From a virus (Duplodnaviria > Caudoviricetes): DNA of 64,000 nucleotides. The DNA is taken from the IMG/VR virus record IMGVR_UViG_3300034082_002867, positions 8,042 to 72,041 of that record; one strand, given 5' to 3'. A program made the position numbers and the translations under genes. The first letter of the stretch is position 1. Each line of letters begins with the position of its first letter. This document shows, piece after piece, positions 3,129 to 61,412 of this stretch. Under the pieces are notes generated by a model. The model was not told the origin of the DNA and ran no database searches. It worked only from the letters and a program-made list of their open reading frames with translations.

Positions 3129-3185
3129 TAACTATGTTACACTCAAAAACGAAATTATCATCAAGAAAAATATTATATTTAGTTA

Positions 3186-3860
3186 TCATAGCTCAAATGC
3201 GGCAATTGTATGTTGGAAAGGGTTGCCTTCTATATTCTTTACTAGATTTAACATCTCAGCAGCAATCTCTCGGATTTCTTTCTGAGCATCAGGCTTGTTG
3301 CGAAGCTCAAGGAAGTGATAAAAACTGCGCCAATTAAACATAACGTCAGCTTGAATTTGAGAATTATAAGCCTTAAAGAATCGAGCAGATTCCTTAGCTC
3401 GCTTGCGACCTAAACTTGGTTCAAGATCTTTAACGCATTGATGATAAAGAGTATTGCCAAGGTGAGTGTAATCTTCAAGTATTGTAGTCCATTTACTATT
3501 TTGGACTCCTTCTTTATCAAAGGTAGATTCAATATCTCCCCAATCACTAGGAATCAAATACTTATCTTCCTTTATCTCCTTGTACCTAGCAGACTCTCCA
3601 TTAATAGATACGCCGACTCGATGCTTAAGAAGATGAATGTGACTAGCAATATCAGTATCTACTAAGAAGTGAATGCTAGACTTTTCAAAGGGAGTATGAT
3701 GCCCCGCATCAGCGAGCATCTTAAGGAGCTTAGGGATTCTATTAATTTTATCTTCATTTAAATCTCGGCTTGTAGAAGTCCAAGCTGAACAAGCATGAAC
3801 TTGATCATTGCCATAATAGCCAAGCAACTGAACTTTGTTGTCGTTTTTATCGTTAATCAT
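3186..3860 (-). CDS. thyX: FAD-dependent thymidylate synthase
   Basis: GHHTPFE, KHRVGVSINGESARY (RHR..SxR motif variant), NWRSFYHFLELR, AQKEIR. Confidence 0.92.
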   Translation of the reverse strand: MINDKNDNKVQLLGYYGNDQVHACSAWTSTSRDLNEDKINRIPKLLKMLADAGHHTPFEKSSIHFLVDTDIASHIHLLKHRVGVSINGESARYKEIKEDKYLIPSDWGDIESTFDKEGVQNSKWTTILEDYTHLGNTLYHQCVKDLEPSLGRKRAKESARFFKAYNSQIQADVMFNWRSFYHFLELRNKPDAQKEIREIAAEMLNLVKNIEGNPFQHTIAAFEL

Positions 3861-3861
3861 T

Positions 3862-4317
3862 TTACTTTATCCCTGCTTCAACGTAAGTCATAGACACTTC
3901 CTTGTTATTAATCAAGAATTTACGATTAGATAAATGAGCTTGTGCGACTTTGTCTTTATTTTCTCCATTGTAAGCTACTGCATAATGACTAATAATCAAC
4001 CAATCATTAAGAACAGTATTATCTTTTGGATTAATAATTTTGCCAAGCAAACGTCCAAACTTTTCTTCGCTGTCACTTAGTACAGTCTGTAGGATAATTT
4101 GACCTTCGCATTTGTCAATGAATTCTTTGACTTTATTTTTACTGAGAGTCCCGAAAACTTTTTCTGCCTTATCGGATGTTCGGCTTTCAGGAGTGTCGAT
4201 CCCAAGAAGACGTACACTTTGATTGGACAATACTACATTAAATCCTAGATCAAGATCGACATTGATAGTGTCGCCGTCTATTACTTTATTTACTTTTGCG
4301 TGATATTCGAAAGGCAT
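3862..4317 (-). CDS. thermonuclease (SNase-like)
   Basis: KVIDGDTI, VRLLGIDTPE, KFGRLLG. Confidence 0.85.
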   Translation of the reverse strand: MPFEYHAKVNKVIDGDTINVDLDLGFNVVLSNQSVRLLGIDTPESRTSDKAEKVFGTLSKNKVKEFIDKCEGQIILQTVLSDSEEKFGRLLGKIINPKDNTVLNDWLIISHYAVAYNGENKDKVAQAHLSNRKFLINNKEVSMTYVEAGIK

Positions 4318-4320
4318 AAA

Positions 4321-5091
4321 TTATATATTTGAGAATTTTTTTATTTCTAACTTACCGTTGCTAAATACTATATACTCATTTAGTCCGTTGTCAATGCAAA
4401 GATTGTCGCAATCTGCTGGATTCACATTGCCATCTAAATGATGAGGATTAACTCTACCGTTTTTATGATAAGTGTGACCAACGATTTGTTTTAATCCTTC
4501 AATAGGTTGAAACTCTTGTTTAAAATCTAGCCAAACAATTCCTCCACCTTTCTTGGGACCACCTCGACTTCGGCCAGCATAATAAAACCAATGATTTTGA
4601 TCTGTCCGTAAAGCAATGTTTGCGCGTTCTATTTCTTTCACAAAAAATAGATTCAAGTCATCATTATTTTTAACAGATGGATCTATGTAATCAGAAAACA
4701 GTCCAGCATGAGTACAAAGATAGTCATCAATCCAAAAACGCCATTTGAATTTGTTGGTAATATTCTGACGCTCAGATCCTAGTATTTCATCGATAGCAAA
4801 ATACTTTCTATCTTCATATCCACTACATATAGTATAATGATTATTGAATAAATAATGCAAATCATGATTACCAAAAAGAGTATAATTATTTGGCGCAGAT
4901 AGATATCGCATCAAATAATCAGCAGTCTTTTTGTAATCATCGGAATCGTCCAAATTAAAACTATCAAACCAATCGCCAAGACAAATATTTATGTCTGCCG
5001 ATTCGTGCTGAATAATCTTATTGAACTTCTCAATGTTATTGTGAAGATCAGAAAGTAATACTATTTTCTTATTGTGACTATCGAATGTCAT
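4321..5091 (-). CDS. calcineurin-like metallophosphoesterase
   Basis: SDLH, LGDWFD, GNHD, THAG and GHT motifs; start placed at MTFDSH (track starts at 5118). Confidence 0.88.
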   Translation of the reverse strand: MTFDSHNKKIVLLSDLHNNIEKFNKIIQHESADINICLGDWFDSFNLDDSDDYKKTADYLMRYLSAPNNYTLFGNHDLHYLFNNHYTICSGYEDRKYFAIDEILGSERQNITNKFKWRFWIDDYLCTHAGLFSDYIDPSVKNNDDLNLFFVKEIERANIALRTDQNHWFYYAGRSRGGPKKGGGIVWLDFKQEFQPIEGLKQIVGHTYHKNGRVNPHHLDGNVNPADCDNLCIDNGLNEYIVFSNGKLEIKKFSNI

Positions 5092-5455
5092 TTCTAAATT
5101 GTGTTTTAAAAGGATCAATCGTTGGTTTGCTGATTATGATTCTTGTATTAGTTTCGTTTTCTTTAACTTCTAACCATTTGACTTCAAAGTCGCCTTTTTC
5201 ATTTCCACTCATTTCTAGCGTTCGATCATTAACATGAAAAATAATACCGTGGACATGGAGCTTAGTAATGGGCATGCTAGTTCCTAATCCAACGTTATCT
5301 GATCCTCCAATACCAAGATTGCCATTATTAAGTGAAAAATCTTTTGACGGTTGAATATTCTCTTCTGCTTTGATTAGAGATGGAGTCGCTGCTGCCGCTA
5401 CAAAACCGCCGAATATAGATTTAAAGAATCCCTTACGAGTGAATTTCATACTCAT
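5078..5455 (-). CDS. hypothetical protein with Tat-like leader and a fibre-like GNLGIG..KLHVHG segment
   Basis: TRKGFFK plus hydrophobic stretch; GNLGIGG and PITKLHVHG. Confidence 0.45.
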   Translation of the reverse strand: MSMKFTRKGFFKSIFGGFVAAAATPSLIKAEENIQPSKDFSLNNGNLGIGGSDNVGLGTSMPITKLHVHGIIFHVNDRTLEMSGNEKGDFEVKWLEVKENETNTRIIISKPTIDPFKTQFRNDIR

Positions 5456-5466
5456 ATATTATAACT

Positions 5467-5883
5467 TTACTTGTCATAATCTATTTTTCCAATGACGTTT
5501 ATGCGAAAAGTATTAGTTACTTTTCCATCATTAGAACTGGTTATAATGTAGCTCTCTTCAATCGTACCGTCAAGAAAAAAAATAATTTTTGTTGCAGATG
5601 ATTCTATAATTTTTAAATCGTTAGTTATTGCGGCGAGTTCATCTGGATTCTCAAGAGAGTTTATAGTGTATTCTTCATCGAAAGATAATTCAATATCTTT
5701 TTGATGGTATGCTGCTTGATGACGTTTGTTTATTAAAAATGTTTTTAAATTCTCTCGCGCTTCTTGATACCTGTTTCCGTTGAAAGAATCAAAATTAATA
5801 ACAATCGCGGCAATTATTGATAATAAAATCGTAGTTGCCAATACTATCTCTATAAGAGTAAACCCTTTGGATTTACCAATCAT
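5467..5883 (-). CDS. prepilin-type N-terminal cleavage/methylation protein (type IV pilin or pseudopilin-like)
   Basis: KSKG-FTLIEIVLATTILLSIIAAI: class III signal with G(-1), F(+1), E(+5). Confidence 0.85.
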   Translation of the reverse strand: MIGKSKGFTLIEIVLATTILLSIIAAIVINFDSFNGNRYQEARENLKTFLINKRHQAAYHQKDIELSFDEEYTINSLENPDELAAITNDLKIIESSATKIIFFLDGTIEESYIITSSNDGKVTNTFRINVIGKIDYDK

Positions 5884-6157
5884 TATATTTTGGTAGTTTT
5901 TCTAACTCTTTTTGTCTTTCAATAGCTCGTTTTAAAATGGTTTTTAACTCCATTAGTGCTGTCTCGTAAGAAACACAAGTTATTTCTATATTATCGGTGA
6001 CATATCCATGATGTAACACTCTATATTTTGGCTGCTCGCCATAAGACCAGCGCGTTTCTATATACCAATGACAGTCTTTATCTTTATGGTGATCGCCGCT
6101 GATAAGATCGTGCCATTCTTCAGATAACTTTACTATATCTTTTTGTATGTCAGTCAT
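5873..6157 (-). CDS. hypothetical protein
   Basis: ORF track; coupled overlaps. Confidence 0.55.
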   Translation of the reverse strand: MTDIQKDIVKLSEEWHDLISGDHHKDKDCHWYIETRWSYGEQPKYRVLHHGYVTDNIEITCVSYETALMELKTILKRAIERQKELEKLPKYNDW

Positions 6158-6371
6158 GAATATCTATGTGTCGAGCGTTAAGTTCATCATACAAAATTGT
6201 ATGAATGGTGTCAAGAGCTTCACTCACATTTTCGAAATCGTTACCGTGCTTGCGGTAGCTTCTTAATCTTTCAGCAAGATGACAAATCACTGCATACATA
6301 TCAGCAGATTGGTTTGCTATTTCAAATTGCTTTTGATCTTCAGGAAGATTGAATTCTAAGATTGCTTTCAT
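6150..6371 (-). CDS. hypothetical protein
   Basis: MKAILEFNLPED N-terminus, seen in small phage proteins. Confidence 0.6.
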   Translation of the reverse strand: MKAILEFNLPEDQKQFEIANQSADMYAVICHLAERLRSYRKHGNDFENVSEALDTIHTILYDELNARHIDIHD

Positions 6372-7029
6372 ATTTTAAAATTTGTTCACCGATGTATTTA
6401 GTATACGCAGGAGGAATGGCTTCAGTTAATTCCCAACCACGACCTGCCCAAGGCATATCCATTACCTTGCGCCAAACATCGATTGAGCCTTTGCGACGAC
6501 TCTTGCCGGTAACGCTCATATCGCGATAATCGATGCCATTATCTTCGGCGTATTTTTTAGAATATCCACGTTTAGTAATGCTTTTTAATTCTGCAACTGG
6601 AAAATTACATTCAAAATATCGCGTTCTTTCGATTGGCATATTAAACATATAGCCAGTTAACTTAAACGGTTCTATAAGATATTCTTTTGCGCCAGCAACG
6701 TTTTCAATAATATAATATTTACCAGTATTGATTAGCGCACTGCGAACTGGCTCAATTAGTTTTGGCGTGTCTTTGCCTTGAGAGTAATGAACGTAGACTG
6801 AATCAGGCTTTGTAGCGTTACTATATCCCTGACAAGGAGGTGATGCGTGAATAACGTCAAATGAGCCAAGAAACTCTTTATCTTTCAGGATTTCCATTAC
6901 ATCTCCTTTAATGAATTTAAAAGGATAACTAGGCTGATCTTTAATATCAACTCCGGTCACTTCGAATCCTGCTTGGCTGTAACCCATGCTGGCTCCACCA
7001 GCGCAACAAAATAAATCAAGTAATTTCAT
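6340..7029 (-). CDS. C5 DNA cytosine methyltransferase (short type)
   Basis: LDLFCCAGG (motif I), HASPPCQ (motif IV), IIENV (motif VI). Confidence 0.9.
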   Translation of the reverse strand: MKLLDLFCCAGGASMGYSQAGFEVTGVDIKDQPSYPFKFIKGDVMEILKDKEFLGSFDVIHASPPCQGYSNATKPDSVYVHYSQGKDTPKLIEPVRSALINTGKYYIIENVAGAKEYLIEPFKLTGYMFNMPIERTRYFECNFPVAELKSITKRGYSKKYAEDNGIDYRDMSVTGKSRRKGSIDVWRKVMDMPWAGRGWELTEAIPPAYTKYIGEQILKYESNLRIQSS

Positions 7030-7094
7030 AAATTTGTAAAGGAAATGTAAAAATTGTATCTTTTTGATTGTTTAACGTGTCAATTATTGTAGAT

Positions 7095-7361
7095 ATGAAA
7101 TATCTACTATCAATTATCGCGCTGACTCTTTCACTCAGCGCACAAGGTAAACCAGAAAATCCTCCCGGTCAAGGGGAAAATCGTCGCAAACCTCCTGAAA
7201 TTTCGAAAGAATTTCGAGAAGAGATGCTAAAAAAATACGATACGAATAAAGATGGAAAATTAGATAAAGAAGAAAGATCTAAAATTTCCTCTGAAGATCG
7301 CAAAAAGGTGGGTCCACCTCGCAGAGGACCAAAAGGCCCGCCTTCTCCAAGAAAAAATTAA
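7095..7361 (+). CDS. secreted EF-hand protein
   Basis: Signal peptide MKYLLSIIALTLSLSAQ; EF loop DTNKDGKLDKEE; Pro/Gly/Arg-rich flanks. Confidence 0.75.
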   Translation: MKYLLSIIALTLSLSAQGKPENPPGQGENRRKPPEISKEFREEMLKKYDTNKDGKLDKEERSKISSEDRKKVGPPRRGPKGPPSPRKN

Positions 7362-7362
7362 T

Positions 7363-7396
7363 AAAAAACCCACAGATTTAACTCTGTGGGTTGTTT
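7363..7396. terminator. bidirectional intrinsic terminator
   Basis: aacccacaga/tctgtgggtt stem between convergent genes. Confidence 0.8.
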
Positions 7397-7410
7397 GCTT
7401 ATATCAATAA

Positions 7411-7710
7411 TTACTCAGAAACTGTATTTGAATCGTTGTCAGAAGCAGCTTGTAGACGATCTGCTTGAGCGTTGATTACGTCTGCGGCTGCTTGAATAGC
7501 CTCTTCAGTAGGATGTGGAGTGTTTAGCACCTTTACGGCCTGATCAGTGATTGAAGATAGGCGGGTGATAGCGTCTTGTAGGTTAGTTAGTGAGGACATA
7601 ATATGTTCTATTTGTTTTTGTAACGATGCTTGCTTATCTGCGATCTCTTTAATCTGTTTATTTTCACTTAAAAATATAGATTTAAGATTTTTTAGAAAAG
7701 TATTCATCAT
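7411..7710 (-). CDS. hypothetical coiled-coil protein
   Basis: ORF track; helical, Ala/Gln-rich. Confidence 0.55.
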   Translation of the reverse strand: MMNTFLKNLKSIFLSENKQIKEIADKQASLQKQIEHIMSSLTNLQDAITRLSSITDQAVKVLNTPHPTEEAIQAAADVINAQADRLQAASDNDSNTVSE

Positions 7711-7759
7711 TAAAATATTTTATATAAAAAATTGAATTTGTAAGTCACAAACAAGTTAA

Positions 7760-8131
7760 TTATTCACACTTTTTAAAACCCAGCAGTATTGCCGATTGTG
7801 TAGATAGTGTTTTGTACCATCCATGTTTTTCGCAAAGATGTCCTTTGCCGCCAGTCACTTCACAAGTTTTAGATGAAAGTTTCGCATACTTGTCAATCAT
7901 AGCAGAGGTCACTTCATTTCCGCCGCTCGCATAAAACCGAAGTCCTGCAAATTTCTCCTTGACTTGAGCCGCGACGACTTGTTGGCAACCAGAGTTATTA
8001 ATTTCATGTTGCATGTCTTTGCAAAGATCAAAGATAATATCAAACCATCCATCATCACATTCAAAATAAAAATTCTCCTTAAAGATGTCAGGAAATCTAT
8101 TAATTAGTTTATCGCTATTCTTGTTAGTCAT
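7760..8131 (-). CDS. conserved phage hypothetical protein
   Basis: DDGWFDII and QVKEKFAGLRFY, with C-terminal CEVTG. Confidence 0.7.
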   Translation of the reverse strand: MTNKNSDKLINRFPDIFKENFYFECDDGWFDIIFDLCKDMQHEINNSGCQQVVAAQVKEKFAGLRFYASGGNEVTSAMIDKYAKLSSKTCEVTGGKGHLCEKHGWYKTLSTQSAILLGFKKCE

Positions 8132-8267
8132 TGTATTTATCTTTTTTGTTTAAATCAAAAGGGTTTTCGTCTTGTTCTTCGATTTCTCCAAGACAGTCTA
8201 TGCAAACAGAACAATAATTCAAATCTTCTAAAAATGCGGTTTTTTTGCCGCAGTAATCGCAGTTCAT
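8124..8267 (-). CDS. small Cys-rich (zinc-finger-like) protein, 47 aa
   Basis: Hand-translated MNCDYCGKK...YCSVCIDCLGE; fills the gap between two ORFs. Confidence 0.55.
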   Translation of the reverse strand: MNCDYCGKKTAFLEDLNYCSVCIDCLGEIEEQDENPFDLNKKDKYND

Positions 8268-8485: not shown

Positions 8486-8530
8486 ATAAAAATAATATGC
8501 GGTTTCAAGGATAACCGCAAACCTTTTTAA

Positions 8531-8725: not shown

Positions 8726-8726
8726 A

Positions 8727-9011
8727 TTAAGAGTTTTGAATTAGAATGTCGTGAATTAGATGACGAGTCTTATGGTCAAGAATTCGACCAGTCTCGTCCT
8801 TCGGGAGATCTGTAACTACCTTATCAAAATTAAGTCCAAGCACAGAACTCATGCACTTAATCTTTCGGTAGATGCCAATCTCCTTGTACTTTAGAATTGA
8901 CCACAATGTGTCAACTTGTTCTGGAGTCGCCTTAGTAATTGCATTAGTCAAGGCAACTGGTTGTGTAATAACATCAGTCTTTTCACTCATATATTTTATA
9001 TTACTGATCAT
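8727..9011 (-). CDS. hypothetical protein
   Basis: ORF track. Confidence 0.5.
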   Translation of the reverse strand: MISNIKYMSEKTDVITQPVALTNAITKATPEQVDTLWSILKYKEIGIYRKIKCMSSVLGLNFDKVVTDLPKDETGRILDHKTRHLIHDILIQNS

Positions 9012-19898: not shown

Positions 19899-20279
19899 TT
19901 AGTCTTGCTTTTTAAATCTACTTAGATCTAAGTTAGCAAGAGGCTTTTCAATATTTAATGATGCTAGTCTTTCGTTTTGGACGACTAGTTTGCTGCCGCC
20001 CAAAACCTTTCCGTCAACAACATCGTATATGAAGAATACGGTCTTTGTTAAACCCACTCTAACTATTCTTCCAGGTTTACCATCTACATAAACGACATCA
20101 TCTTCTTTATAATCATTTCCAACAAACATGAATAAAGCTGCGGCAAGTTTTTCGATACTAGACTTAAACATTAATGCTACAAGTCCAATAATAAATAACC
20201 AAACATATTTGCCGGTCAAATCTTGACCAGTTGATTCTAATACTTGTTGTGATATAACGTGTGCGTCGTTTGTGTTCAT
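19899..20279 (-). CDS. truncated MscS-like protein (TM helix plus beta domain)
   Basis: Hydrophobic N-terminal half, then YKEDDVVYVDGKPGRIVRVGLTKTVF. Confidence 0.6.
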   Translation of the reverse strand: MNTNDAHVISQQVLESTGQDLTGKYVWLFIIGLVALMFKSSIEKLAAALFMFVGNDYKEDDVVYVDGKPGRIVRVGLTKTVFFIYDVVDGKVLGGSKLVVQNERLASLNIEKPLANLDLSRFKKQD

Positions 20280-20365
20280 ATAATCAGTTGTGTCATAACT
20301 GATTACACTAAAATAAATAAAATAGATTTTTTAAAGTTCTCCGGTATTTTTTAGTATATTGCCGG

Positions 20366-21325: not shown

Positions 21326-21367
21326 ATCTATGATTACACAGATAATGATAAAAAGAAAATATAAAAA

Positions 21368-22678: not shown

Positions 22679-22692
22679 AAATAGTTTTACAC

Positions 22693-23058: not shown

Positions 23059-23132
23059 TGGTTGTCCGAACAGGATTTGAACCTATACAAAAAGAGTCAA
23101 AGTCTTTTGTGCTACCGTTACACCATCGGACA
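23059..23132 (-). tRNA. trnQ: tRNA-Gln(TTG)
   Basis: TGTCCGA/TCGGACA acceptor, anticodon loop CTTTGAC, GGTTCAAATCC T arm, encoded CCA. Confidence 0.95.
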
Positions 23133-23140: not shown

Positions 23141-23233
23141 TGGCGGTGAGAGAAGGATTTGAACCTTCGGTACTCTTTTGGAGTACGGAATTTTAGTAGA
23201 ATTCTGCCATAAACCAGACTCGGCCACCTCACC
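23141..23233 (-). tRNA. trnS: tRNA-Ser with anticodon ACT (class II, long variable arm)
   Basis: GGTGAGG/TCTCACC acceptor, G73, CCA; anticodon arm GAATT-CTACTAA-AATTC; variable stem GTACTC/GAGTAC; T loop TTCAAAT. Confidence 0.9.
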
Positions 23234-28882: not shown

Positions 28883-28896
28883 ATAATTTATTACAC

Positions 28897-30255: not shown

Positions 30256-32664
30256 TTATATTACACAAATATTACCATCTTTGATAGAAATTTCTAAATT
30301 CAATTTCTTGTCCGCATCTAGCATTTTTTCTGCAACTTGAGTTTGCAATTCACGTTGAATGGTTTTGATAACTTGTCTTGCGCCAAAATTATTAAATTGA
30401 ATCTTACTGAAGATATGATTTGTAACTTCTGAAGAATATTTAATAGTTACGTCTCTATTAGATAGATCGCTTTTAAATAGTTGAAGTTCTTTCTCTATGA
30501 TTGATTTGATATTCTCTTCACCAAGGGAATCAAAAATAACAATTTCATCGATTCGATTAAGTAAATCAGCGGGAAAATGTTTTTTAATTGATGATAGCAC
30601 ATCTGATTTGCTAGATTTTTGTTTGCCGAATCCAATAGCAGAATGATTGATGCTTTCGGCACCAATGTTTGTAGTCATGACAATCATGGAATTAGAAAAA
30701 TCAACCGTTTTTCCTGAAGAGTCGGTTATCTTGCCTTCTTCTAAAATTTGTAACAAACAATACAAAACATCTTCATCAGCTTTTTGTATTTCATCAAAAA
30801 GAATCAAAGAGTATGGATTCTTTCTAACTTTCTCTGTTAGAACTCCTCCTTTATCAAATCCAATATAACCGGGGTTAGAACCAACTAATTTATTTACAGC
30901 CGCTTTGTCTGTGTATTCAGACATATCGATTGTTATAAAATTATTTTTATTAATAAATAGACACTCAGCTATGATTTTTGCAGTCATGGTCTTTCCAACA
31001 CCTGTTGGACCTGCATAAAGCATAGAACATATCGGTTTGCTAGGGTTGCGAAAGCCAGCCTTGACCCTAATTAAAGATTTATAAATATGTTCTATTTGAG
31101 GTTCTTGACCGAAAACTTGTTCTTTCAGTTTGATCTTGAGAGATTTAACTTTTTCAAAGTCTTGTAATTTTAAATCATCAATTGGAATATTTGTTTTATC
31201 AGATATAACTTCTAAAATATCAGAGTTTGTTATTTGATATTTATTATTTCGCCAATTGTTTATCATCTTTTTTGTTGATTCTTCATATTCAACTAAAAGA
31301 GTTTCTAAAGAAGCTATTTTTTTGTTTTCGCTAACTCGTTCGTTTGAGCCGACAAATTTGCTGAGTTTTTTTTCTATCTTGATCATCTCGGCGGATTTTA
31401 CAAAATTTTTCAATTTAACTTTCGCTCCAACTTGATCAATAATATCTAAAGCTTTATCAGGGAATCTTCCTTCAATATATTTCTCAGCACTGTTAATAGT
31501 AAAGCGTAAAACTTCGTCAGTAAAATCAATAATATGAAAACTCTCGTATCCGCCTTTAATATTTTTAATTAAATTAAAAGTTTGTTCTTTTGTCGGCTCT
31601 TCAATTTTAATGATTTGAAAACGCCTAGATAAAGCTGGATCGTCTGAAATGGTTTTTTTATATTCATCAAATGTTGTTGCTCCAATACAGCTAATCTCTC
31701 CTCTAGCTAAATATGGTTTTAAAATATTAGCCATGTCGTTTCCATTCTCTGGATTACCAGCACCAATAATAGTGTGAATTTCATCTATAAAAAGAATAAT
31801 GTATGGATCATCAGTTATTTCTTTTAATAGGTTCTTAATCTTTTCTTCAAATTCGCCGCGAAATTTACAACCAGCAATCATCATGGGAATGTCTAGGCTA
31901 TAAATTTGTTTAAGACTAAGCAAATCCGAAGCTTCTCCTTTTACTATCGCTTGAGCCAAAGATTCAACAAGTGCGGTTTTACCTACACCGGCTTCGCCAA
32001 CAATTAAAGGATTGTTCTTATTTTTGCGGCAAAGGACTTCTGAAATTTTTTGTATTAGTTCTTTATTTAAATGTAAGTTATTAATTTTTCCATTAACTAC
32101 TTGTGTATTTAAATTGTTAGCATAAGTGTTTAAGATTTTATACTTCTTAATATCAAAGGTTTGCTTCGCTTTATTAGGAACATTTATTTCTTCTTCTTCA
32201 ACACTTGGAAGCATGTCGTCGTTTTCTAGCTTTTGTTCAACGTAATCTACTATTTTAACAAAGTCATAATTATAATCTATTAAGTATAGTTCAAACTTTT
32301 GATCAGGCACTTCAAATAAACTTATAAATACATGTTCTAAACCAATATACTTATGATCAAATTTAGAAGATATACTCTTGGCGCATTTAAAAATGGTCTT
32401 TATGCCTTCAGATAATAAAGGTCTAGTTACTGCTTTCTTTTGCGCTGTAGTGTTGGTTTTTAAAAATTTTATAGCACTGTTTTTTATTTTTAAAGAATCT
32501 ATTCCAAAATTACCAAACGCTTCTTCTATTTGGCTTTGACTAAGATTAAGAAAACTTATAAACAAATGAAGATGCGTGATCTCTGTGTGCTTGAAATCTA
32601 CGGCTATTTTATAAGCTTCTTTGATTAGTTTTTGCGCTCTAGGAGTAAGATTTAAATTTTTCAT
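30256..32664 (-). CDS. clpC: ClpC/ClpA-like AAA+ unfoldase
   Basis: Clp-N repeats; GEAGVGKT and FIDEIH; GPTGVGKT and FDEIQK; IGF loop. Confidence 0.9.
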   Translation of the reverse strand: MKNLNLTPRAQKLIKEAYKIAVDFKHTEITHLHLFISFLNLSQSQIEEAFGNFGIDSLKIKNSAIKFLKTNTTAQKKAVTRPLLSEGIKTIFKCAKSISSKFDHKYIGLEHVFISLFEVPDQKFELYLIDYNYDFVKIVDYVEQKLENDDMLPSVEEEEINVPNKAKQTFDIKKYKILNTYANNLNTQVVNGKINNLHLNKELIQKISEVLCRKNKNNPLIVGEAGVGKTALVESLAQAIVKGEASDLLSLKQIYSLDIPMMIAGCKFRGEFEEKIKNLLKEITDDPYIILFIDEIHTIIGAGNPENGNDMANILKPYLARGEISCIGATTFDEYKKTISDDPALSRRFQIIKIEEPTKEQTFNLIKNIKGGYESFHIIDFTDEVLRFTINSAEKYIEGRFPDKALDIIDQVGAKVKLKNFVKSAEMIKIEKKLSKFVGSNERVSENKKIASLETLLVEYEESTKKMINNWRNNKYQITNSDILEVISDKTNIPIDDLKLQDFEKVKSLKIKLKEQVFGQEPQIEHIYKSLIRVKAGFRNPSKPICSMLYAGPTGVGKTMTAKIIAECLFINKNNFITIDMSEYTDKAAVNKLVGSNPGYIGFDKGGVLTEKVRKNPYSLILFDEIQKADEDVLYCLLQILEEGKITDSSGKTVDFSNSMIVMTTNIGAESINHSAIGFGKQKSSKSDVLSSIKKHFPADLLNRIDEIVIFDSLGEENIKSIIEKELQLFKSDLSNRDVTIKYSSEVTNHIFSKIQFNNFGARQVIKTIQRELQTQVAEKMLDADKKLNLEISIKDGNICVI

Positions 32665-40508: not shown

Positions 40509-40922
40509 TTATAATATTACACCTTGACTCTCGAAAAGCTCTTTATTTATAGTATCGTTTTCAAATATAGTTACAAGTGTAATTTTATTAAGTTCGCAAA
40601 AACGTTCTTTTTTCTTATCTCTATTGAGTTGATGAAGAAAATTCATTCTATTTGTATGGAAGAACTTAACAAATCCAGTGTGTTGTCTGCCTTGAACTTC
40701 TATAGCTATCTTTTTATTAGCGTTATAAAAGTCCAAGGTAAGACGAGTTCCAACTATTGGAAACTCTTCAAACACAATATTCTGTTGCCAATAGTTGCTT
40801 AAAAATTTCTTAGCTTCTGTTTGAAATTTACTACGACTATTCGCGCTCCAATCAATTAAATAATTGCGAGCATTCTTGCAACGTCTTTTTTTATTACTCA
40901 GTGATAGAAATTCCATCGCCAA
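40509..40922 (-). CDS. DUF559/Vsr-like endonuclease
   Basis: LDFY, IAIEVQGRQH, RDKKKERFC. Confidence 0.75.
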   Translation of the reverse strand: MAMEFLSLSNKKRRCKNARNYLIDWSANSRSKFQTEAKKFLSNYWQQNIVFEEFPIVGTRLTLDFYNANKKIAIEVQGRQHTGFVKFFHTNRMNFLHQLNRDKKKERFCELNKITLVTIFENDTINKELFESQGVIL

Positions 40923-42473: not shown

Positions 42474-43004
42474 TTAAGCTTTTGGATCGAAGCCAGCACT
42501 CTGAAGACCGGGATTTTTAGGAGCAGATTTTTCCTGTTGTATTTTTAATTTTTCATCTATACTTAAACCTTCGATGGCTGCATCTGGGGTGATATTTCCT
42601 GATGGAGCGGCGGGGGTTTCTGGAAAAACAGCTATCTGAGCGGCTTCGGACTTTTCAGCTTCTGGTGATTCTCCAGCTTCTTTCTTGCCTTCTTCATTTA
42701 GCTTTCCTTTTTTTTGCATATTTTTAAGAATAGCTTTTTGAAGAGCAGGAGGAAGAGTTTTTTGTTTTTCAGTTAATTGCCCAGCCATTTCAGTAAGCAT
42801 TGGGCGGTTTTTCATGTATGACATGCCGCACATATACTTAGCGTCACTTGTGGACATTCCGGCAGTGTTGATCAAAGATTCATCTTTGAGCATACACTCG
42901 CTCATGTATTCGCTATGCATTTCAGTTTCGTCTTCCTCCATTATGTTGGAGATGGAGACTTCAGCTATGAGATTTTTTGTATCGAATTTTAAATTTGATT
43001 TCAT
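42474..43004 (-). CDS. acidic low-complexity phage protein
   Basis: QKTLPPALQKAIL motif; Glu/Met-rich. Confidence 0.55.
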   Translation of the reverse strand: MKSNLKFDTKNLIAEVSISNIMEEDETEMHSEYMSECMLKDESLINTAGMSTSDAKYMCGMSYMKNRPMLTEMAGQLTEKQKTLPPALQKAILKNMQKKGKLNEEGKKEAGESPEAEKSEAAQIAVFPETPAAPSGNITPDAAIEGLSIDEKLKIQQEKSAPKNPGLQSAGFDPKA

Positions 43005-44848: not shown

Positions 44849-44880
44849 ATTTAAAATTACACTAATTTAACAATGTGTAG

Positions 44881-44920
44881 AAAAAAGTAAAGCCGCTTTT
44901 TTAGAGCGGCTTTTTTTGTT
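44881..44920. terminator. intrinsic terminator
   Basis: aaagccgct/agcggcttt stem flanked by A and T tracts. Confidence 0.75.
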
Positions 44921-44931
44921 TTAATTGACTA

Positions 44932-45045: not shown

Positions 45046-45093
45046 ATTTGTATATGTAGTTTATGTTATATTTGTGAAAATGTTTTTCAACTT

Positions 45094-47076: not shown

Positions 47077-47094
47077 GGTAAAAAGTATTATACA

Positions 47095-48150
47095 CTAGAT
47101 TTTAAAAATCTCTATGTCGTACTTTACCATACGTTCTACGAGGTTGTCAAAGGAAATTTTCGGTTTCCAACCTAATTCTTTTCTGGCTGGAGTCGAGTCT
47201 CCCAAAAGAAGCTCAACTTCGGCGGGCCTGTAAAATTTAGGATTAATTTTAACTAAAATAGACGATTGAATTTCATTTTTAATGGCGTATTCAGTAGACA
47301 CGCTCATCTGTTCTTCTTGTCCGCATCCATGCCAAACACCTTCGATCCCGGCGCAAACAAAAGATTTATTAATGAATTCCCTAATTGTGTGTGTTTCGTT
47401 GCTTGAGAGAACGTAATCTTTTGGTTTTTCTTGATTCATTATTTTCCAAACGCCATCGACAAAATCTTCAGAATCTGACCAGTCTCTTTGAGCGTCTAAA
47501 TTTCCAAGTTCAATTGGAGAGAATGGTTGATTGTTTTTAATAGCATGGTGTATGCGAGCAACGCCTTTGCTGATTTTTCTTGTTACAAATTCTTCTCCAC
47601 GTTTAGTTCCTTCGTGATTAAAAAGAATGCCATGCACAGCATATAGATTATAAGATTCACGATAAACTTTAACCAAATGACGAGCAGCGGCTTTGCTTGC
47701 TCCGTATGGGCTTCTTGGTCTAACTGGATGAAGAATGTCTTGTGGATTATATTGAACATCTCCAAATTCTTCGCTAGACCCAGCGGAATAAAATCGACAC
47801 TTTGGTTGAAAACGACGAATAGCTTCAAGGCATCTTGCTACACCAGTAGCGTTGACATCGAAAGTTTGCAAAGGTATTTCCCAACTGCATCCAACAAAAC
47901 TTTGTGCGCCAAAATTAATAAAATAGTCTGGTTGAATATCTCTTACAATATTGTCTAAACTTATAGAATCAGCAAGATCGCCATATACAAATTTAAATCT
48001 AGTATTTTTAATGAATGCATTACAATTTATAAAATTAGGATTAGAGGTTCTTCGCATCATGCCATAAATTTGAGCGTCAGTATTCTTAAGCAAATATTCG
48101 CACATGTTTGCGCCATCTTGTCCTAAAATTCCAGTTATAATTATTTTCAT
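47095..48150 (-). CDS. gmd: GDP-mannose 4,6-dehydratase
   Basis: ITGILGQDG, AQSFV, PRSPYGASK, LFNHE, GNLDAQRDW. Confidence 0.95.
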   Translation of the reverse strand: MKIIITGILGQDGANMCEYLLKNTDAQIYGMMRRTSNPNFINCNAFIKNTRFKFVYGDLADSISLDNIVRDIQPDYFINFGAQSFVGCSWEIPLQTFDVNATGVARCLEAIRRFQPKCRFYSAGSSEEFGDVQYNPQDILHPVRPRSPYGASKAAARHLVKVYRESYNLYAVHGILFNHEGTKRGEEFVTRKISKGVARIHHAIKNNQPFSPIELGNLDAQRDWSDSEDFVDGVWKIMNQEKPKDYVLSSNETHTIREFINKSFVCAGIEGVWHGCGQEEQMSVSTEYAIKNEIQSSILVKINPKFYRPAEVELLLGDSTPARKELGWKPKISFDNLVERMVKYDIEIFKI

Positions 48151-51294: not shown

Positions 51295-51299
51295 TTATT

Positions 51300-52867: not shown

Positions 52868-52870
52868 TTT

Positions 52871-53545: not shown

Positions 53546-53547
53546 GA

Positions 53548-54495: not shown

Positions 54496-54496
54496 T

Positions 54497-55876: not shown

Positions 55877-56724
55877 AAATCAACCGAAGCGTTTTTACAA
55901 TTATCTTTAAACTTTTCTGTGCCATATTTTTCTATGTCATGAATACATCCTATCTGAGATTGTTTAGAAGTTAAAATTAACATTCCACAAATAATTGCTT
56001 CAGCAACTGATCTACAGAAAGGTTCTCTTAAATTTGGTTCATAATAAAGAGATTTGTATTTATTATAAACTTCGGGCATTTGTTCGTATTTAATAAGACC
56101 AAGATATTCAATGTTTGGAACATTAGTACTTAGAAAATTATAAGTTTGATAATCGCTCCACCCGGCGATAGCGTATTTCTTATCTGGATCTCTTAAAGCC
56201 AGTTCAAAGAAGTTGCTTGTTCCCTTCAATGGGTGCATATACCCAACATACAAAATCTTATCTTCGCGTTGCTGGTTATAATCATAAAACTTATCTGTTT
56301 CAATTGGATCTGGAACAATTTCCACGTTCTTGAAAATATCTCCGTACAATTGTTTAAAAAACCAAAAATGATAATCAGTTAAGAAAAACGTCTTTTTACA
56401 GAACGAAAATAGTTTCACTCTGTTTTCTTGGCTTAAATAATCGTTTGAATCGTGTTCAATTCTAACATGGTATTTGTGCTTGGTTATCTCATCTAAAACC
56501 CAAGGATGCTTTTGCAAGACAGCGCAAACGTTTGACGTAACCAGTACATCATAATCATGAATATTGATATGCTTTCCAAAAGTTTCATGGTTTGTTTTCA
56601 GAACGTTAAAACCAAGCAACTTACCTTGATCTATGATTATCTTATCGCTTCTTTGTGCGCCGCCTGGAGATCTATCTAAATCAAAGTCAGCTAACCATAA
56701 TATTTTTTGGTTGACATTTATCAT
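55861..56724 (-). CDS. GT4-like glycosyltransferase
   Basis: GGAQ, YVG..HPLKG, EPFCRSVAEA. Confidence 0.8.
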   Translation of the reverse strand: MINVNQKILWLADFDLDRSPGGAQRSDKIIIDQGKLLGFNVLKTNHETFGKHINIHDYDVLVTSNVCAVLQKHPWVLDEITKHKYHVRIEHDSNDYLSQENRVKLFSFCKKTFFLTDYHFWFFKQLYGDIFKNVEIVPDPIETDKFYDYNQQREDKILYVGYMHPLKGTSNFFELALRDPDKKYAIAGWSDYQTYNFLSTNVPNIEYLGLIKYEQMPEVYNKYKSLYYEPNLREPFCRSVAEAIICGMLILTSKQSQIGCIHDIEKYGTEKFKDNCKNASVDFWNKI

Positions 56725-56744
56725 TTAAAGAATATAGTAATCTT

Positions 56745-57050
56745 ATGATTAGGGCTTTAGGATTTCAAGACAATTTTTACTTGGTAATATGCGCTGATAT
56801 AGAGTGCATGGTTTTAGCGAATTCATTCGAAGAAGCCGCTACAAATGGTTTAAAAAACATATTAAACAAACTTGGGGTAAAAACCAATCTTTCTTTCTTG
56901 ATCAGCGTTGATTTAATAAATAATCATGAAATAGAAACGTCCATTTTTCAAACTTCGTCTATTTTAAATGACCTTGGCTATTTTAAATTGGCAAAAGATT
57001 TGGAATCTTTGAGAGATTTTTTCCTTGACAAAGGAGAAAATTCTCATTAA
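56745..57050 (+). CDS. hypothetical protein
   Basis: ORF track; first plus-strand gene after the strand switch. Confidence 0.5.
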   Translation: MIRALGFQDNFYLVICADIECMVLANSFEEAATNGLKNILNKLGVKTNLSFLISVDLINNHEIETSIFQTSSILNDLGYFKLAKDLESLRDFFLDKGENSH

Positions 57051-57136
57051 ACTCTGAAGCGAAGCGAAAGAGTTTAATTAATCTTAAGAAGATCTTACAT
57101 AAAATCTTAAATAATATCTTAATAAAAAGTTAGGTT

Positions 57137-57190
57137 AACCTAAAGAGCGAAACCTAAAGAGCGAAACCTAAAGAGCGAAACCTAAGAGAA
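57137..57190 (+). repeat. three perfect 14-bp direct repeats plus one degenerate copy
   Basis: AACCTAAAGAGCGA x3, then AACCTAAGAGAA. Confidence 0.9.
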
Positions 57191-57232
57191 ATGAACAAGA
57201 CTCATAAATTTATAATACGAAGAAGAAAAAAA

Positions 57233-57820
57233 ATGATTTCAAAAGAATTACCTTTAATATTTGGTATCGCTGGCGTAGCAAGATGCGGCAAAGACACGCT
57301 TGGAAAACACCTCATAAGCAAACTTAATAAATCTGGATTCCCAGCGATGAATATCTCTTTCGCTATGGAATTGAAAAGAGACCTAGACCCCTTCTTAAAA
57401 GAGAAGCTTAATGTTTCAGCTTTTACAGAAATTAATTCTGAAAAAGATCTTATTAGACCAATCCTTGTTTGTTGGGGAACCGATGTTTGCAGAAAAATTG
57501 ATTCTGATTATTGGATAAAGAAAGTCGAAAAGCAGATAAAATCTTCTATAAACAATAAGATCATAGTCGTTATCACAGACGTTCGATACGAAAACGAGTC
57601 TAAATGGATAAAAGAAAACGGCGGTTTCATGATTCATCTTAGCAGAATGGGTCAAAAACCTTCTAATTTTCAAGAAAGATTAAACGATCCGATTGTAAAA
57701 CGAAATTCAGACTATGCAATCAAGTGGAAAACGTTCACCGATGAAAAAGAAACTTGCAATTATCATCTAAGCAAGTTATTCTATCAGAAAGGATGGTCAA
57801 CATATGGAGACTTTAAGTGA
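57233..57820 (+). CDS. deoxynucleoside monophosphate kinase
   Basis: GIAGVARCGKDT, SFA..LK, RPIL, VITDVRYENE. Confidence 0.85.
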   Translation: MISKELPLIFGIAGVARCGKDTLGKHLISKLNKSGFPAMNISFAMELKRDLDPFLKEKLNVSAFTEINSEKDLIRPILVCWGTDVCRKIDSDYWIKKVEKQIKSSINNKIIVVITDVRYENESKWIKENGGFMIHLSRMGQKPSNFQERLNDPIVKRNSDYAIKWKTFTDEKETCNYHLSKLFYQKGWSTYGDFK

Positions 57821-58409
57821 TTTAGATTTAATCAACAGCATTAAAAACAAGAATAAAATAAATGAATGTCTACAAGAACTTATAGACAGGCATTCGGGAA
57901 TTTACTTGGACATAGTAAATTCTTTTCTCAAGAACTGTAACAACGATTCATTGAGGCATGAAATAATAAACGACAAAGAATATGCGATTTATAATTCCGT
58001 TCTCAAGTACGACGAGAATCGCGGCACTAAGTTTTCTACATTTCTCGGAAATGAAGCTAAATGGATATGTCTAAACGCTTCCAATAAGAATAAAAAATAT
58101 GTAGAATTAAACGACAACACTTACGATTTTGAATGCATAAAAGATGAGTACGAACAAACTTCTATAAACCTTCAAGATCAAATATTGAAAGATTTCAACG
58201 AACACATATCTAAACATCCAGACAAGCGAATACAAAAAATCTTTTCAATGCGTTATTCTGGCAACAAAAAACTTATTCCTTGGAGGAAGATAAGTAAAAC
58301 AATGAATTTAAGCATTCAAGGATGCATAAATATACACAACGCAGCTTTAAATTCCATTTCTAAAAACATAAGATCCAAATATGAAATTATTAGTCAACGC
58401 TCCAATTAA
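57804..58409 (+). CDS. sigma70-family RNA polymerase sigma factor (regions 2 and 4)
   Basis: VLKYDENRGTKFSTFL; C-terminal HTH PWRKISKTMNLSIQGC. Confidence 0.82.
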   Translation: METLSDLDLINSIKNKNKINECLQELIDRHSGIYLDIVNSFLKNCNNDSLRHEIINDKEYAIYNSVLKYDENRGTKFSTFLGNEAKWICLNASNKNKKYVELNDNTYDFECIKDEYEQTSINLQDQILKDFNEHISKHPDKRIQKIFSMRYSGNKKLIPWRKISKTMNLSIQGCINIHNAALNSISKNIRSKYEIISQRSN

Positions 58410-59469
58410 CGCACTATCTTTTGGCAACGTATCTGTAAACATTCTTAGAGAATTGTTTAAGAAAAATATTGATTTAATATTTTTTCCTATTGGCGATAAA
58501 GCCGAAATGGAAGCTTATGATAAGATCGAACCTGATTTTGTAAAATATTTACAAGCAGCCACAAACGATAGGTACAGTAAAATTTCAAAAGATATTCCTT
58601 CTTTAAAATTGTGGCATATTTTTGGCAGCGAAACTAGATATTCAAAGAATCAATCTTTGTTTACTTTTCACGAAGTGTCCGAAGTTACAAATATAGAAAA
58701 AAATCTTTTAAGTTTGCAAGACAGAATATTTGCAAGTTCTAATTATACCAAAAACATTTTCAATCTTAACGGATTAGACAATGTAACTCATGTGCCACTA
58801 GGTTTTGACAACGACTTTCAAATAACCAATAAAACTTATTTACAAGATAAAATTCATTTCGGAATTCTAGGGAAGTTTGAAAATAGAAAAAATACCGCTC
58901 GCATCATCAAGTCTTGGCTTAAGCTTTTTGGTAATAAGCCAGAATACCAACTTAGCTGCGCGATCACCAATCCTTTCCTCGATAAAGCCAGATTCCAAAA
59001 CGAACTATTAAAAGTTTTAGAAGGAAAACAATACAATAATTTAAACTTCATCCCATATATGCAAACCAACAGCGAAGTTAACGATTACTTAAATAGTATT
59101 GATATTGATCTTGGGGGACTGAGCGGAGCGGAAGGGTGGAATCTTCCATCGTTCAACGCAACCGCACTTGGCAAATGGAGTGTCGTTATAAACGCAACAG
59201 CGCATAAAGACTGGGCGACCAAGGATAATAGCATCCTAATAGAACCTTCTTCTCTAAAGGATTGTTATGATGATGTCTTCTTTAAGAAAGGGCAGTCCTT
59301 TAATCAAGGACAATTCTTTGATATTTCTGATCAAGAAATGGATAATGCTATTCTAAAGTCTTTATCTTATGCAAAAACACCAAATCCAGAAGGATTAAAA
59401 CTTCAAAAACAATTTACTTACGAAAAAACAGTTGAGACAATACTGTGTGCCATAAGTAGCCAGATGTGA
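58381..59469 (+). CDS. GT4-like glycosyltransferase
   Basis: SFGNVS, GKFENRKN, GAEGWNLP. Confidence 0.8.
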   Translation: MKLLVNAPINALSFGNVSVNILRELFKKNIDLIFFPIGDKAEMEAYDKIEPDFVKYLQAATNDRYSKISKDIPSLKLWHIFGSETRYSKNQSLFTFHEVSEVTNIEKNLLSLQDRIFASSNYTKNIFNLNGLDNVTHVPLGFDNDFQITNKTYLQDKIHFGILGKFENRKNTARIIKSWLKLFGNKPEYQLSCAITNPFLDKARFQNELLKVLEGKQYNNLNFIPYMQTNSEVNDYLNSIDIDLGGLSGAEGWNLPSFNATALGKWSVVINATAHKDWATKDNSILIEPSSLKDCYDDVFFKKGQSFNQGQFFDISDQEMDNAILKSLSYAKTPNPEGLKLQKQFTYEKTVETILCAISSQM

Positions 59470-59530
59470 CGCGTTATGTGTCATAAACGCTCTAAAGCGT
59501 CTTTAATGGCGCTTTAAACGCCACAAAAAG

Positions 59531-59547
59531 TTGGCACGATTCTTGCT
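59531..59547 (+). promoter_or_regulatory. sigma54 (-24/-12) promoter
   Basis: TTGGCACGATTCTTGCT matches TGGCAC-N5-TTGC. Confidence 0.75.
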
Positions 59548-59562
59548 ACAGCATAAATAACT

Positions 59563-59841
59563 ATGTATAATAAACTAGTATATAAATATCAAGTAACAGA
59601 AGACGGTTTAACATTCAACGTCGAACTCGCTGGAAAATCTAAAGAAGATGTAAAAATCTTTAAGGAAGATTATTCTATAGCAATCAACGTTAATGATAAC
59701 AAGTATAGAATTAGCTATGAAGATTATCTTCTAAGATCAAAATATGATTTTGATAATCCGAAAGCGAAAATGAAAAACGGCCTTTTAACCATTGTTGTTC
59801 CACAAATTAAAAAAGTAGAAAAACAAATAGAAATAGAATAA
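59563..59841 (+). CDS. Hsp20 small heat-shock protein
   Basis: VELAGKSKEDVKI, AKMKNGLLTIVVP, C-terminal IEI. Confidence 0.85.
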   Translation: MYNKLVYKYQVTEDGLTFNVELAGKSKEDVKIFKEDYSIAINVNDNKYRISYEDYLLRSKYDFDNPKAKMKNGLLTIVVPQIKKVEKQIEIE

Positions 59842-59847
59842 ACAAAC

Positions 59848-59879
59848 AAAGCGCGGCGAAAGTCGCGCTTTAATTTTTT
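59848..59879 (+). terminator. intrinsic terminator
   Basis: aaagcgcggc-gaaa-gtcgcgcttt followed by a T tract. Confidence 0.8.
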
Positions 59880-59899
59880 CTACATATCATATAATAGAT

Positions 59900-60292
59900 A
59901 TGGTTTATCAATTCAAAAATAAAAAGACTGGCAAAATCGTAGATATAGTTATGTCTATGAAAGATTATAAGCCATATCGCGGTGAAAGCGGTAATGACAA
60001 TTTCTGGGAACGTATTTACGATGTACCGCAAGTAAATTTAGGAGACGCTAAAATTGTCGATCCATTTGATAATAAAGCATTTGTAAATAAAACAGGAAAT
60101 ATGTCAGGAAAATACGGCGATCTTCTTGATTACTCTTCAGAACTTTCTGATAGAAGAGCGGCTTTGGCTGGCGGCGAAGATCCATTAAAGCGCAAATATT
60201 TTAATGATTATAAAAAGAAAACAAATGGAAAAAAGCATTTAAAAGACACGCCCAAAAAGATAGAAACAAAAAACGCAACAATTGAATTTTAA
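59900..60292 (+). CDS. FmdB-like phage protein without the zinc-binding Cys residues
   Basis: MVYQFKNKKTGKIVDIVMSM. Confidence 0.45.
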   Translation: MVYQFKNKKTGKIVDIVMSMKDYKPYRGESGNDNFWERIYDVPQVNLGDAKIVDPFDNKAFVNKTGNMSGKYGDLLDYSSELSDRRAALAGGEDPLKRKYFNDYKKKTNGKKHLKDTPKKIETKNATIEF

Positions 60293-61392
60293 ATTAACCT
60301 TGCCGCACCACTTATTCTCATTCCATCTGCTTCAAAGATCTTAAATGAAAAACTAGATTGAAAATTCATATTATCTCCTATTGATAAATCAAAAGATTGA
60401 TTGTCTATTCTTGCATTTAAAATTTCCACCCTTAAACCAGTTGCGCCATCATAGTTTTTTAAATTAAAAGTTAAATCGTAAGCGGTATCGTTATTAAAAA
60501 TATTACTAAAATCACCTGTTACTGGTTCATCAAAAGTTCCATTAAAATTTACTGTACCAATTAATGGATACATGATTCTTTTGTCGTATGGATAATTACT
60601 GCCAAAACCTAATAAATCTTTTCTTTCAATTGGAACGCTAATCTCTAAAGAAGATATTGTAGCTGGCACATCTCCAGAATACCTGACACCACCCATAAAC
60701 GTTTGCGGTAATTGCAGAACTATATCTCCAGGTCTAATAGCATACGGTCTATTAGCTTGATTTGATAGGTAATTTAATGAAGACATGTTGGCTCCGGTAA
60801 GCAAATATTTTTCTGTTGATTTTATTCCATTTGTTAAATTGATTGCCGGAACCTCACTTCCGTTCGCTCCAGTTCCATTATAAGTTTGAAACGTCATGTT
60901 TAAGCAAGAGAAAGAAGTAGAAACAGTTGGAACAGATCCAACTTCAGCAGATATAGAATAGTTAGTTAAAAAAGTATTACCTACTGCAAAAACATCATTG
61001 CCAACCATATTAGTTAAACTGTCGGCATCTTGAGCGTTAGTATCTGTTAATATAAAGAACAAATTCTTATCTTGACCAGAAACAGCCATGTTCTTTAAGA
61101 ACGATTCATTACCAGTAGCGTTCAATCCTAAAATTAACTCATTAGAGTTGTCAGAAACAAGGTATTTTAAATCTACAGATATTTCTGGAATAGTTATGTA
61201 TTTTTCAAATGCAAAATCAGAACTGCCGATTTGTTTTGGACGAGTAATTGGATTAGATACAGATATGCTGCTTGATTGAACTCTTTTTAATAATTTTAAA
61301 GATGCAATACCTGTTTGCCCAGTCCATGACGGCGAATCAGAAACTAAAACATCTGTTCCAGCATATATAACTCTGTTTCTAGTAATTGGCAT
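60289..61392 (-). CDS. putative tail tube/major tail protein
   Basis: RVQSSSIS..RPKQIG, ISVDLKY, IERKDLLGFG; beta-rich; preceded by the GTGTAA motif. Confidence 0.5.
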   Translation of the reverse strand: MPITRNRVIYAGTDVLVSDSPSWTGQTGIASLKLLKRVQSSSISVSNPITRPKQIGSSDFAFEKYITIPEISVDLKYLVSDNSNELILGLNATGNESFLKNMAVSGQDKNLFFILTDTNAQDADSLTNMVGNDVFAVGNTFLTNYSISAEVGSVPTVSTSFSCLNMTFQTYNGTGANGSEVPAINLTNGIKSTEKYLLTGANMSSLNYLSNQANRPYAIRPGDIVLQLPQTFMGGVRYSGDVPATISSLEISVPIERKDLLGFGSNYPYDKRIMYPLIGTVNFNGTFDEPVTGDFSNIFNNDTAYDLTFNLKNYDGATGLRVEILNARIDNQSFDLSIGDNMNFQSSFSFKIFEADGMRISGAARLI

Positions 61393-61412
61393 ATAAAATA
61401 TTACACAGTTAA

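Follow-up and report, generated by a model that had tools for sequence, protein, structure and literature searches.

A GTGTA(A/T) box close to start codons, a probable -35-less promoter in a family of uncultured aquatic phages

Gene content of the window and its GTGTAA sites

The DNA analysed here, termed the window, is a 64,000-nt stretch of IMG/VR virus record IMGVR_UViG_3300034082_002867, and all coordinates are window positions unless a relative is named. This phage fragment (33% GC) carries nearly all of its genes on the minus strand, including rIIA and rIIB and genes for a DnaE-type polymerase, a ClpC-like ATPase, a tubulin-like protein, a DnaB-type helicase, a class II ribonucleotide reductase (RNR) and many glycosyltransferases. 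The subject of this study is the hexamer GTGTAA, which stands shortly before the start codon of some of these genes. An earlier note on the window had reported nine minus-strand copies followed, after exactly 8 nt (N8), by a start codon, and had proposed that they form a single-box, phage-specific late promoter giving near-leaderless mRNAs. All nine sites were present at the positions given, with ATG as start codon, or GTG for the GIY-YIG gene (Table 1). In total, 18 copies of GTGTAA lie on the minus strand of the window, and 9/18 are followed by exactly 8 nt and the start codon of a long open reading frame (ORF).

Relatives were collected via the DnaE polymerase, yielding 270 related IMG/VR contigs (58-100% identity), and three near-complete genomes were used for comparison: G002 (184 kb), G003 (139 kb) and G004 (128 kb). 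No close cultured relative was found among 50,697 phage records, which were searched with the DNA of the whole region (no match). In the same records, the putative sigma factor encoded at 57804-58409 had no match, the best matches of the DnaE, RNR and rIIA proteins were at ≤50% identity, and the virion protein as query gave distant or no phage matches. Megablast with 24 kb of the window also gave no match. The family is large, uncultured and aquatic, without a cultured relative.

Table 1. Boxes, predicted promoters, terminator and sigma gene in the window (spacing is counted from box to start codon; "added" marks sites absent from the earlier note)
Feature	Position	Strand	Downstream gene or content	Remark
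GTGTAA box	3137..3142	-	N8, GTG 3128 of GIY-YIG homing endonuclease (2370-3128)	
GTGTAA box	10089..10094	-	N8, ATG 10080 of rIIB (9001-10080)	TTGACT-N16-TAGCAT promoter additionally predicted ~30 nt upstream
GTGTAA (added)	17583..17588	-	N12, ATG 17570 of 235-aa gene	overlaps -10 of TTGACT-N16-TAAAAT promoter (17607)
GTGTAA box	17851..17856	-	N8, ATG 17842 of 73-aa gene	
GTGTAA (added)	20303..20308	-	23 nt ahead of ATG 20279, or N6 ahead of 6-codon mini-ORF	
GTGTAA box	21334..21339	-	N8, ATG 21325 of 319-aa gene	box kept in relative L024
GTGTAA box	22687..22692	-	N8, ATG 22678 of 436-aa virion structural protein	abuts preceding stop codon
GTGTAA box	28891..28896	-	N8, ATG 28882 of 75-aa gene	abuts stop of tubulin-like gene; orthologous sites N8, N9, N11
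GTGTAA box	30261..30266	-	N8, ATG 30252 of 67-aa gene	inside 3' end (final codons) of preceding ClpC-like gene; orthologous sites N8-N10
GTGTAA box (added)	40517..40522	-	N9, ATG 40507 of 86-aa gene	inside 3' end of preceding gene; retained in G002, G003, G004; relatives' spacing N7-N14
GTGTAA box	44857..44862	-	N8, ATG 44848 of 155-aa DUF5824 gene	
Intrinsic terminator	44881..44915	-	stem AAAGCCGC/GCGGCTTT and T run	ends ~18 nt ahead of 44862 box
GTGTAT variant (added)	47090..47095	-	N13, ATG 47076 of class II RNR	identical GTGTAT-N13 arrangement at G004 orthologue
GTGTAA box	61401..61406	-	N8, ATG 61392 of 367-aa gene, function unassigned	kept before G002 and G004 orthologues (28-39% identity)
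Sigma-70-family protein	57804..58409	+	201 aa; sigma2 and sigma4-like domains, disordered linker	candidate box reader
TTGACA-N16-TATAGT-N6-ATG promoter	56711..56747	+	predicted +1 = A of ATG 56745	heads sigma-gene operon
TTGAC of sigma-70-type promoters	42424, 36621, 17607, 16806, 14178, 12346	-	34-37 nt before ATG	

Enrichment, invariance and placement of the box

Over both strands of the window, GTGTAA was counted 26 times, against 25.7 expected from dinucleotide shuffles, so the signal is purely positional. Upstream motifs were counted and their positional enrichment was evaluated, as the earlier note had advised: among hexamers at a fixed offset, GTGTAA at -14 ranked first at 93 ORF starts (9 copies, binomial P 1e-19) and the next unrelated hexamer reached 4. 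The number expected at one offset was computed as 0.034, in agreement with the previous estimate of well under 0.1. When the upstream 60-mers were shuffled 1000 times, the maximum for any hexamer at any offset was 2-6; a chance origin of the box was excluded on this basis (maximum 6 versus 9 observed).

An aligned set was made from the 59 GTGTA(A/T) sites located 8-10 nt before ORF starts in the window and in G002-G004 (N8 at 39 sites, N9 at 17 and N10 at 3). At no position between -50 and -1 of the box did the information content exceed 0.2 bits, which leaves no room for a -35 element. The 8 bases downstream of the box are AT-rich, the base preceding the start codon is a pyrimidine in 44/59 sites, and A is found at the presumed +1. 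At offsets -14 and -15 of 570 gene starts in the four genomes, GTGTAA was present 38 times and GTGTAT 9 times, while C or G at position 6 was seen twice each and any substitution at positions 1-5 only 0-1 times, i.e. at background level. The box is essentially invariant at positions 1-5 and has A or T (W) at position 6. Because positions 1-5 tolerate no substitution, the AGGTAA that had been listed as a near match before gene 42474-43004 is unlikely to belong to the class: the sequence is there, but such substitutions are at background and the G004 orthologue has no box.

In the relatives' contigs examined, the box lies on the coding strand throughout the family. In G002, G003 and G004 it is kept before orthologues whose proteins are 28-68% identical, amid non-coding sequence that is unrelated. 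At orthologous sites the spacing drifts from N7 to N14, and a distance of exactly 8 nt, true of the nine sites in this genome, is therefore not a property of the element itself. The rIIB gene is preceded by the box in the window versus a TTGACA (-35) promoter in G002; as seen at this gene, the two predicted promoter classes, GTGTAW and TTGACA, are interchangeable.

A terminator-like hairpin with a T run was found ≤25 nt upstream of 9/80 boxes and of 15/581 control starts (Fisher P 0.001); in the window, the 44862 box is the example. One box lies directly 3' of a tRNA gene. At divergent junctions, many of the first genes are headed by a box, and two junctions have boxes back to back. Some of these gaps measure only 24-60 nt, so that the two promoters must overlap. 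Paired boxes, or a box together with a TTGACA promoter, occupy such gaps at G002 127304-127356, G003 121511-121555 and G003 15221-15246.

Across 443 kb of coding sequence from the window and G002-G004, GTGTA ranked 14 in the sense and 11 in the antisense direction for under-representation among the 1024 pentamers (z ~ -4). Avoidance on the antisense strand points to selection at the DNA level, since an RNA signal would not be avoided there. By far the most avoided pentamers in this DNA were CCAGG and CCTGG (z ~ -8), which suggests a CCWGG-specific restriction system in the host that the phage avoids.

Two further copies of the hexamer were noted. The copy at 20308 lies N6 ahead of a 6-codon mini-ORF, the TGA of which overlaps the ATG of a 126-aa gene (19899-20279); the mini-ORF may be leaderless and coupled to the 126-aa gene, or the gene may have a plain 23-nt leader. 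The copy at 23123 falls by chance inside a tRNA-Gln(TTG) gene (23059-23132), which was predicted on the minus strand by ARAGORN together with a tRNA-Ser gene (anticodon ACT, 23141-23233).

Box targets, sigma-like proteins, the TTGACA class and the host

In the window, the box heads the genes of the homing endonuclease, rIIB, the DUF5824 protein, a candidate membrane protein and one virion protein, as well as three small genes of the replication module and, in its GTGTAT form, the class II RNR gene. In the relatives, its targets are RNR, PhoH, a kinase, a sugar epimerase, a protease and two large genes of unassigned function located directly after the terminase gene. The earlier note had described most targets as structural or lysis genes and the promoter as late. 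The functions are instead mixed in both the window and the relatives, and the labels "holin-like", "lipoprotein" and "tail tube" received no support from PHROGs or Pfam; for the 319-aa gene (ATG 21325), Pfam matches to membrane-protein families were all sub-threshold and the function is unassigned. A strictly late regulon was ruled out by the mixed targets (RNR, PhoH, kinase, rIIB, homing endonuclease), which leave "late" unsupported and "non-early" as the most that can be said; the box class would then act in the middle and/or late phase.

Across the whole family, a core Shine-Dalgarno (SD) sequence was found in 3-8% of genes, the same as in the in-gene control. The spacers between box and start codon are indeed free of SD sequences, as had been remarked, but because SD sequences are absent phage-wide this is not special to the box genes. 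Where a gene lacks the box, its upstream region is rich in A and poor in G, and -3 is occupied by A in 56% of cases.

The 57804-58409 product, previously taken for a sigma factor, is of the sigma-70 family according to both its family profile and AlphaFold/Foldseek. It has 436 metagenomic homologues, some of them labelled sigma subunit by the Joint Genome Institute, and its homologues in the relatives gave weak Sigma70_r2 scores. When the family profile was compared with the PDB, sigma factors only were matched, with region 2 aligned to FliA (E 3e-4). The AlphaFold model (mean predicted local distance difference test, pLDDT, 81) shows two helical domains and a disordered linker, and every Foldseek match was a sigma factor, with both domains covered. 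No chain of gp36, the sigma factor of phage phiEco32, was among the PDB profile matches at E ≤1, the presence of gp36 in the searched PDB copy not having been checked. The gene is in an operon behind the TTGACA promoter at 56711, and its homologues on other contigs are placed likewise.

The relatives encode a second sigma-like protein with regions 2 and 4, the gene of which adjoins the terminase gene and, in G002 and G004, lies downstream of a box-headed unit. Phage RNA polymerase (PF00940, PF00623) was not detected in three relatives, a weak negative because the PF00940 control matched nowhere. The 57804-58409 protein is a candidate reader of the box.

The same genomes contain a second promoter class, TTGACA-N16/17-TAnnnT, in which a single base separates TG from the hexamer (TGn-TAnnnT). 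The distance from the first base of TTGAC to the ATG is exactly 35 nt at 23 G002 genes, and 34-37 nt at eight ORF starts of the window (e.g. rIIA at 12310 and the ORF starts 16772 and 56745). In the geometry of sigma-70 promoters, a TTGACA located 35 nt before the ATG puts +1 on the A of the ATG; a leaderless design would thus be general in these phages, independently of the box. The TTGACA sites concentrate in small-ORF regions (26/38 G002 sites at 80-120 kb). Hardly any boxes occur there; outside these regions, they head larger genes. This spatial segregation fits an early and a non-early class. In upstream regions without either motif, a search for a third promoter class returned only AT-rich words.

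For one minus-strand ORF (13199-14197), the start of the longest ORF falls within a terminator hairpin (14210-14187) and the TTGACA at 14178 points to ATG 14143, which is likely to be the true start.

Bins of metagenome-assembled genomes (MAGs) that contain the sigma gene lean towards Bacteroidota/Flavobacteriales (4/7, including the three closest). The family contigs concerned (L121-L127) were binned with Bacteroidota, Flavobacterium sp., Crocinitomicaceae and Flavobacteriaceae, and also with Coraliomargarita, Cellvibrionales and Bacteriovoracaceae, one of them on a 210-kb contig. Protein-cluster names were inconsistent as to the host (archaeon, Gammaproteobacteria, Crocinitomicaceae). The sigma A of Bacteroidota reads TAnnTTTG, and promoters of this type were not enriched; the TTGACA-class promoters are E. 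coli-like. Both observations count against a Bacteroidota/Flavobacteriales host. The sole exact sigma-54 consensus, TGGCACGATTCTTGCT at 59532-59547 (+), lies 15 nt ahead of the ATG of an Hsp20 gene (59563-59841), and a sigma-54 chaperone regulon has been described in Flavobacterium psychrophilum (PMC9723704). The Hsp20 gene may have brought this site with it as a heat-shock promoter of host type, and by this analogy the site hints at a flavobacterial host.

Promoter reading, alternatives and known systems

GTGTA(A/T) is probably a phage-specific, -35-less promoter that gives leaderless or near-leaderless mRNAs. Comparative evidence thus favours most of what had been proposed at the outset, namely a single box, no -35 element and transcription beginning on the start codon or no more than 1-2 nt away from it, the late timing excepted. 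The box would serve as a core, -10-like element bound by the RNA polymerase core of the host together with a phage-encoded sigma factor; the 57804-58409 sigma, the candidate for this role, would itself come from a sigma-70-type promoter used early. Once the AT-rich 8-9 bp after the box had been melted by the polymerase, transcription would begin on the A of the start codon or no more than 1-2 nt away from it. A start at this position would make the messages leaderless or nearly so and would fix the spacing between box and ATG. With +1 assumed on the A of the ATG, an N8 box would occupy -14 to -9. As in leaderless genes, only a short, constant distance separates the putative -10-type element from the start codon, and an SD sequence is absent. 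We infer the start site, the sigma that reads the box and the timing of its use from these features.

Several points weigh against this interpretation. The start site is deduced from geometry; assembly contig ends, considered as a proxy for 5' ends, were uninformative, since one search yielded long metagenome contigs only and another, made with the initial 20 nt of the 436-aa gene, a single contig. GTG abuts TA without a spacer base, in the register of neither a canonical extended -10 nor a canonical hexamer, and at N8 transcription would begin on the T of the ATG if the discriminator had its standard length of 6 nt. The N10-N14 spacing at some orthologous sites implies leaders of 2-6 nt, so strict leaderlessness is not general. 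A distance of 5-10 nt to the start codon would also be expected of a ribosome-binding signal, and either of the two sigma-like proteins, or neither, might be its reader. Finally, if the host is flavobacterial, as the MAG binning hints, leaderless mRNAs are rare there, since they represent 5.5% of mRNAs in F. psychrophilum (PMC9723704).

The box could alternatively be read by the primary sigma of the host as a -35-less extended -10, phage factors disabling -35 recognition, as they do in Thermus phage P23-45, and no phage sigma being involved. GTG is followed by TAWWAW, similar to TATAAT, and Thermus phages provide precedents: in the middle/late promoters of P23-45 there is no -35 box and the -10 is preceded by a TG(TG) motif (PMC5758890), and the middle/late mRNAs of phiYS40 are mostly leaderless (PMC3594737). 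This explanation is nevertheless unlikely. An extended -10 has TG (-15/-14), one base and TAnnnT (-12 to -7), as in the TGn-TAnnnT of the sigma-70-type promoters of the same genomes, and the box is one base off this register; moreover, its positions 1-5 are invariant, unlike degenerate host -10 elements, and the family encodes two sigma-like proteins.

Two RNA-level explanations were considered. A translation signal, in which GUGUAA placed 8-9 nt before the start recruits ribosomes or a phage translational activator in a non-SD host, would agree with a distance to the start codon within ribosome-binding-site range, with the lack of SD sequences anywhere in the phage and with a motif that is strand-specific and always directed into the gene. 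It appears quite improbable, however: only ~10% of the genes are preceded by the box, the remainder having plain A-rich upstream regions, and this distribution, without any SD enrichment, is not that of an SD-type ribosome-binding site. Nor is UUACAC known from the conserved 3' tail of 16S rRNA, which was counted against a translation signal. Boxes positioned right after terminators or in divergent gaps with no space for another promoter, the avoidance of GTGTA on the antisense strand and the exchange of the box for a sigma-70-type promoter at rIIB all speak for a DNA element instead. The same terminator-adjacent and divergent-gap sites, and the same antisense avoidance, make an RNA processing site very improbable, and no candidate nuclease is linked to the motif. 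In that scheme, GUGUAA would be the recognition site of an endoribonuclease, encoded by phage or host, that cleaves at a constant distance 3' of it and so releases leaderless mRNAs from longer precursors; this would account for the fixed distance to the start codon and for the boxes inside the 3' ends of upstream genes (30266, 40522).

Beyond the promoter itself, a broader picture is conceivable but rather doubtful: in an abundant aquatic family (128-184 kb) with probably Flavobacteriales hosts, nearly all transcription units would be leaderless and would use the E. coli-like TTGACA-N17-TAnnnT and the invariant GTGTAW classes, neither of them host-like and each maybe read by one of two phage sigmas, in a host phylum where leaderless mRNAs make up only ~5%; both transcription and translation initiation would thereby be insulated from the host. 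If the box is indeed a promoter with its start on the start codon, a simple and exact rule would identify the transcription units and true start codons of an abundant uncultured phage family, and the Thermus phages would be joined by a second natural case of dependence on leaderless messages. It would also supply a very sharp 5-6 bp sigma-promoter pair, usable as an orthogonal expression part, and raise the question of how leaderless messages are translated efficiently in a host that perhaps does not normally use them.

A literature search for a published GTGTAA phage promoter returned nothing relevant. The analogy with the T4 sequence TATAAATA, drawn in the earlier note, applies to the logic and not to the sequence, and the gp36 promoters of phiEco32 are closer. 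In the middle/late promoters of phiEco32, which depend on the phage sigma gp36, AATGTA is centred at -11.5 (PMC12276001). In both systems, a short conserved box has a TGTA core and needs no specific -35 element, and the present box would lie in the same place if +1 is the A of the ATG. The phiEco32 reader, gp36 (with gp79), is a distant homologue of sigma factors that the phage itself encodes and that is produced earlier from promoters of host type; here the putative sigma would play this part. Unlike AATGTA, the present box is GTGTAW with two invariant G and is tied to the start codon, so that the mRNAs would have no leaders; in addition, the sigma was not recovered as a relative of gp36 (the PDB profile search gave cellular sigmas only). 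T4 late promoters (TATAAATA at -10, gp55/gp33/gp45) are likewise single-box and -35-less and are read by a small sigma-like phage protein, for which there is a candidate here; they differ in sequence, in giving mRNAs with SD-containing leaders at variable distance, and in serving late functions, beyond which the targets of the present box extend.

The Thermus phages phiYS40 and P23-45 share a -35-less class with a TG motif ahead of an AT-rich -10 and mostly leaderless middle/late messages, as predicted here. Their promoters are read by the host sigma A in the normal TGn register, whereas the present box is invariant and displaced from that register by one base, and the phages have sigma genes of their own. 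Cellular leaderless genes of Deinococcus-Thermus and Actinobacteria have a -10 box adjoining the ORF (PMC12340547, PMC3160421), and this placement of a -10-type element at a fixed short distance from the ATG is shared by the box and is exactly the layout of the TTGACA-N17-TAnnnT-N6-ATG class. In contrast to those genes, the GTGTAW box is a non-host element, and the host phylum is possibly one with rare leaderless mRNAs. Compared with all of these systems, the putative GTGTAW promoter is distinct in its sequence and register (GTG abutting TA), in its invariance and in its tie to the start codon.

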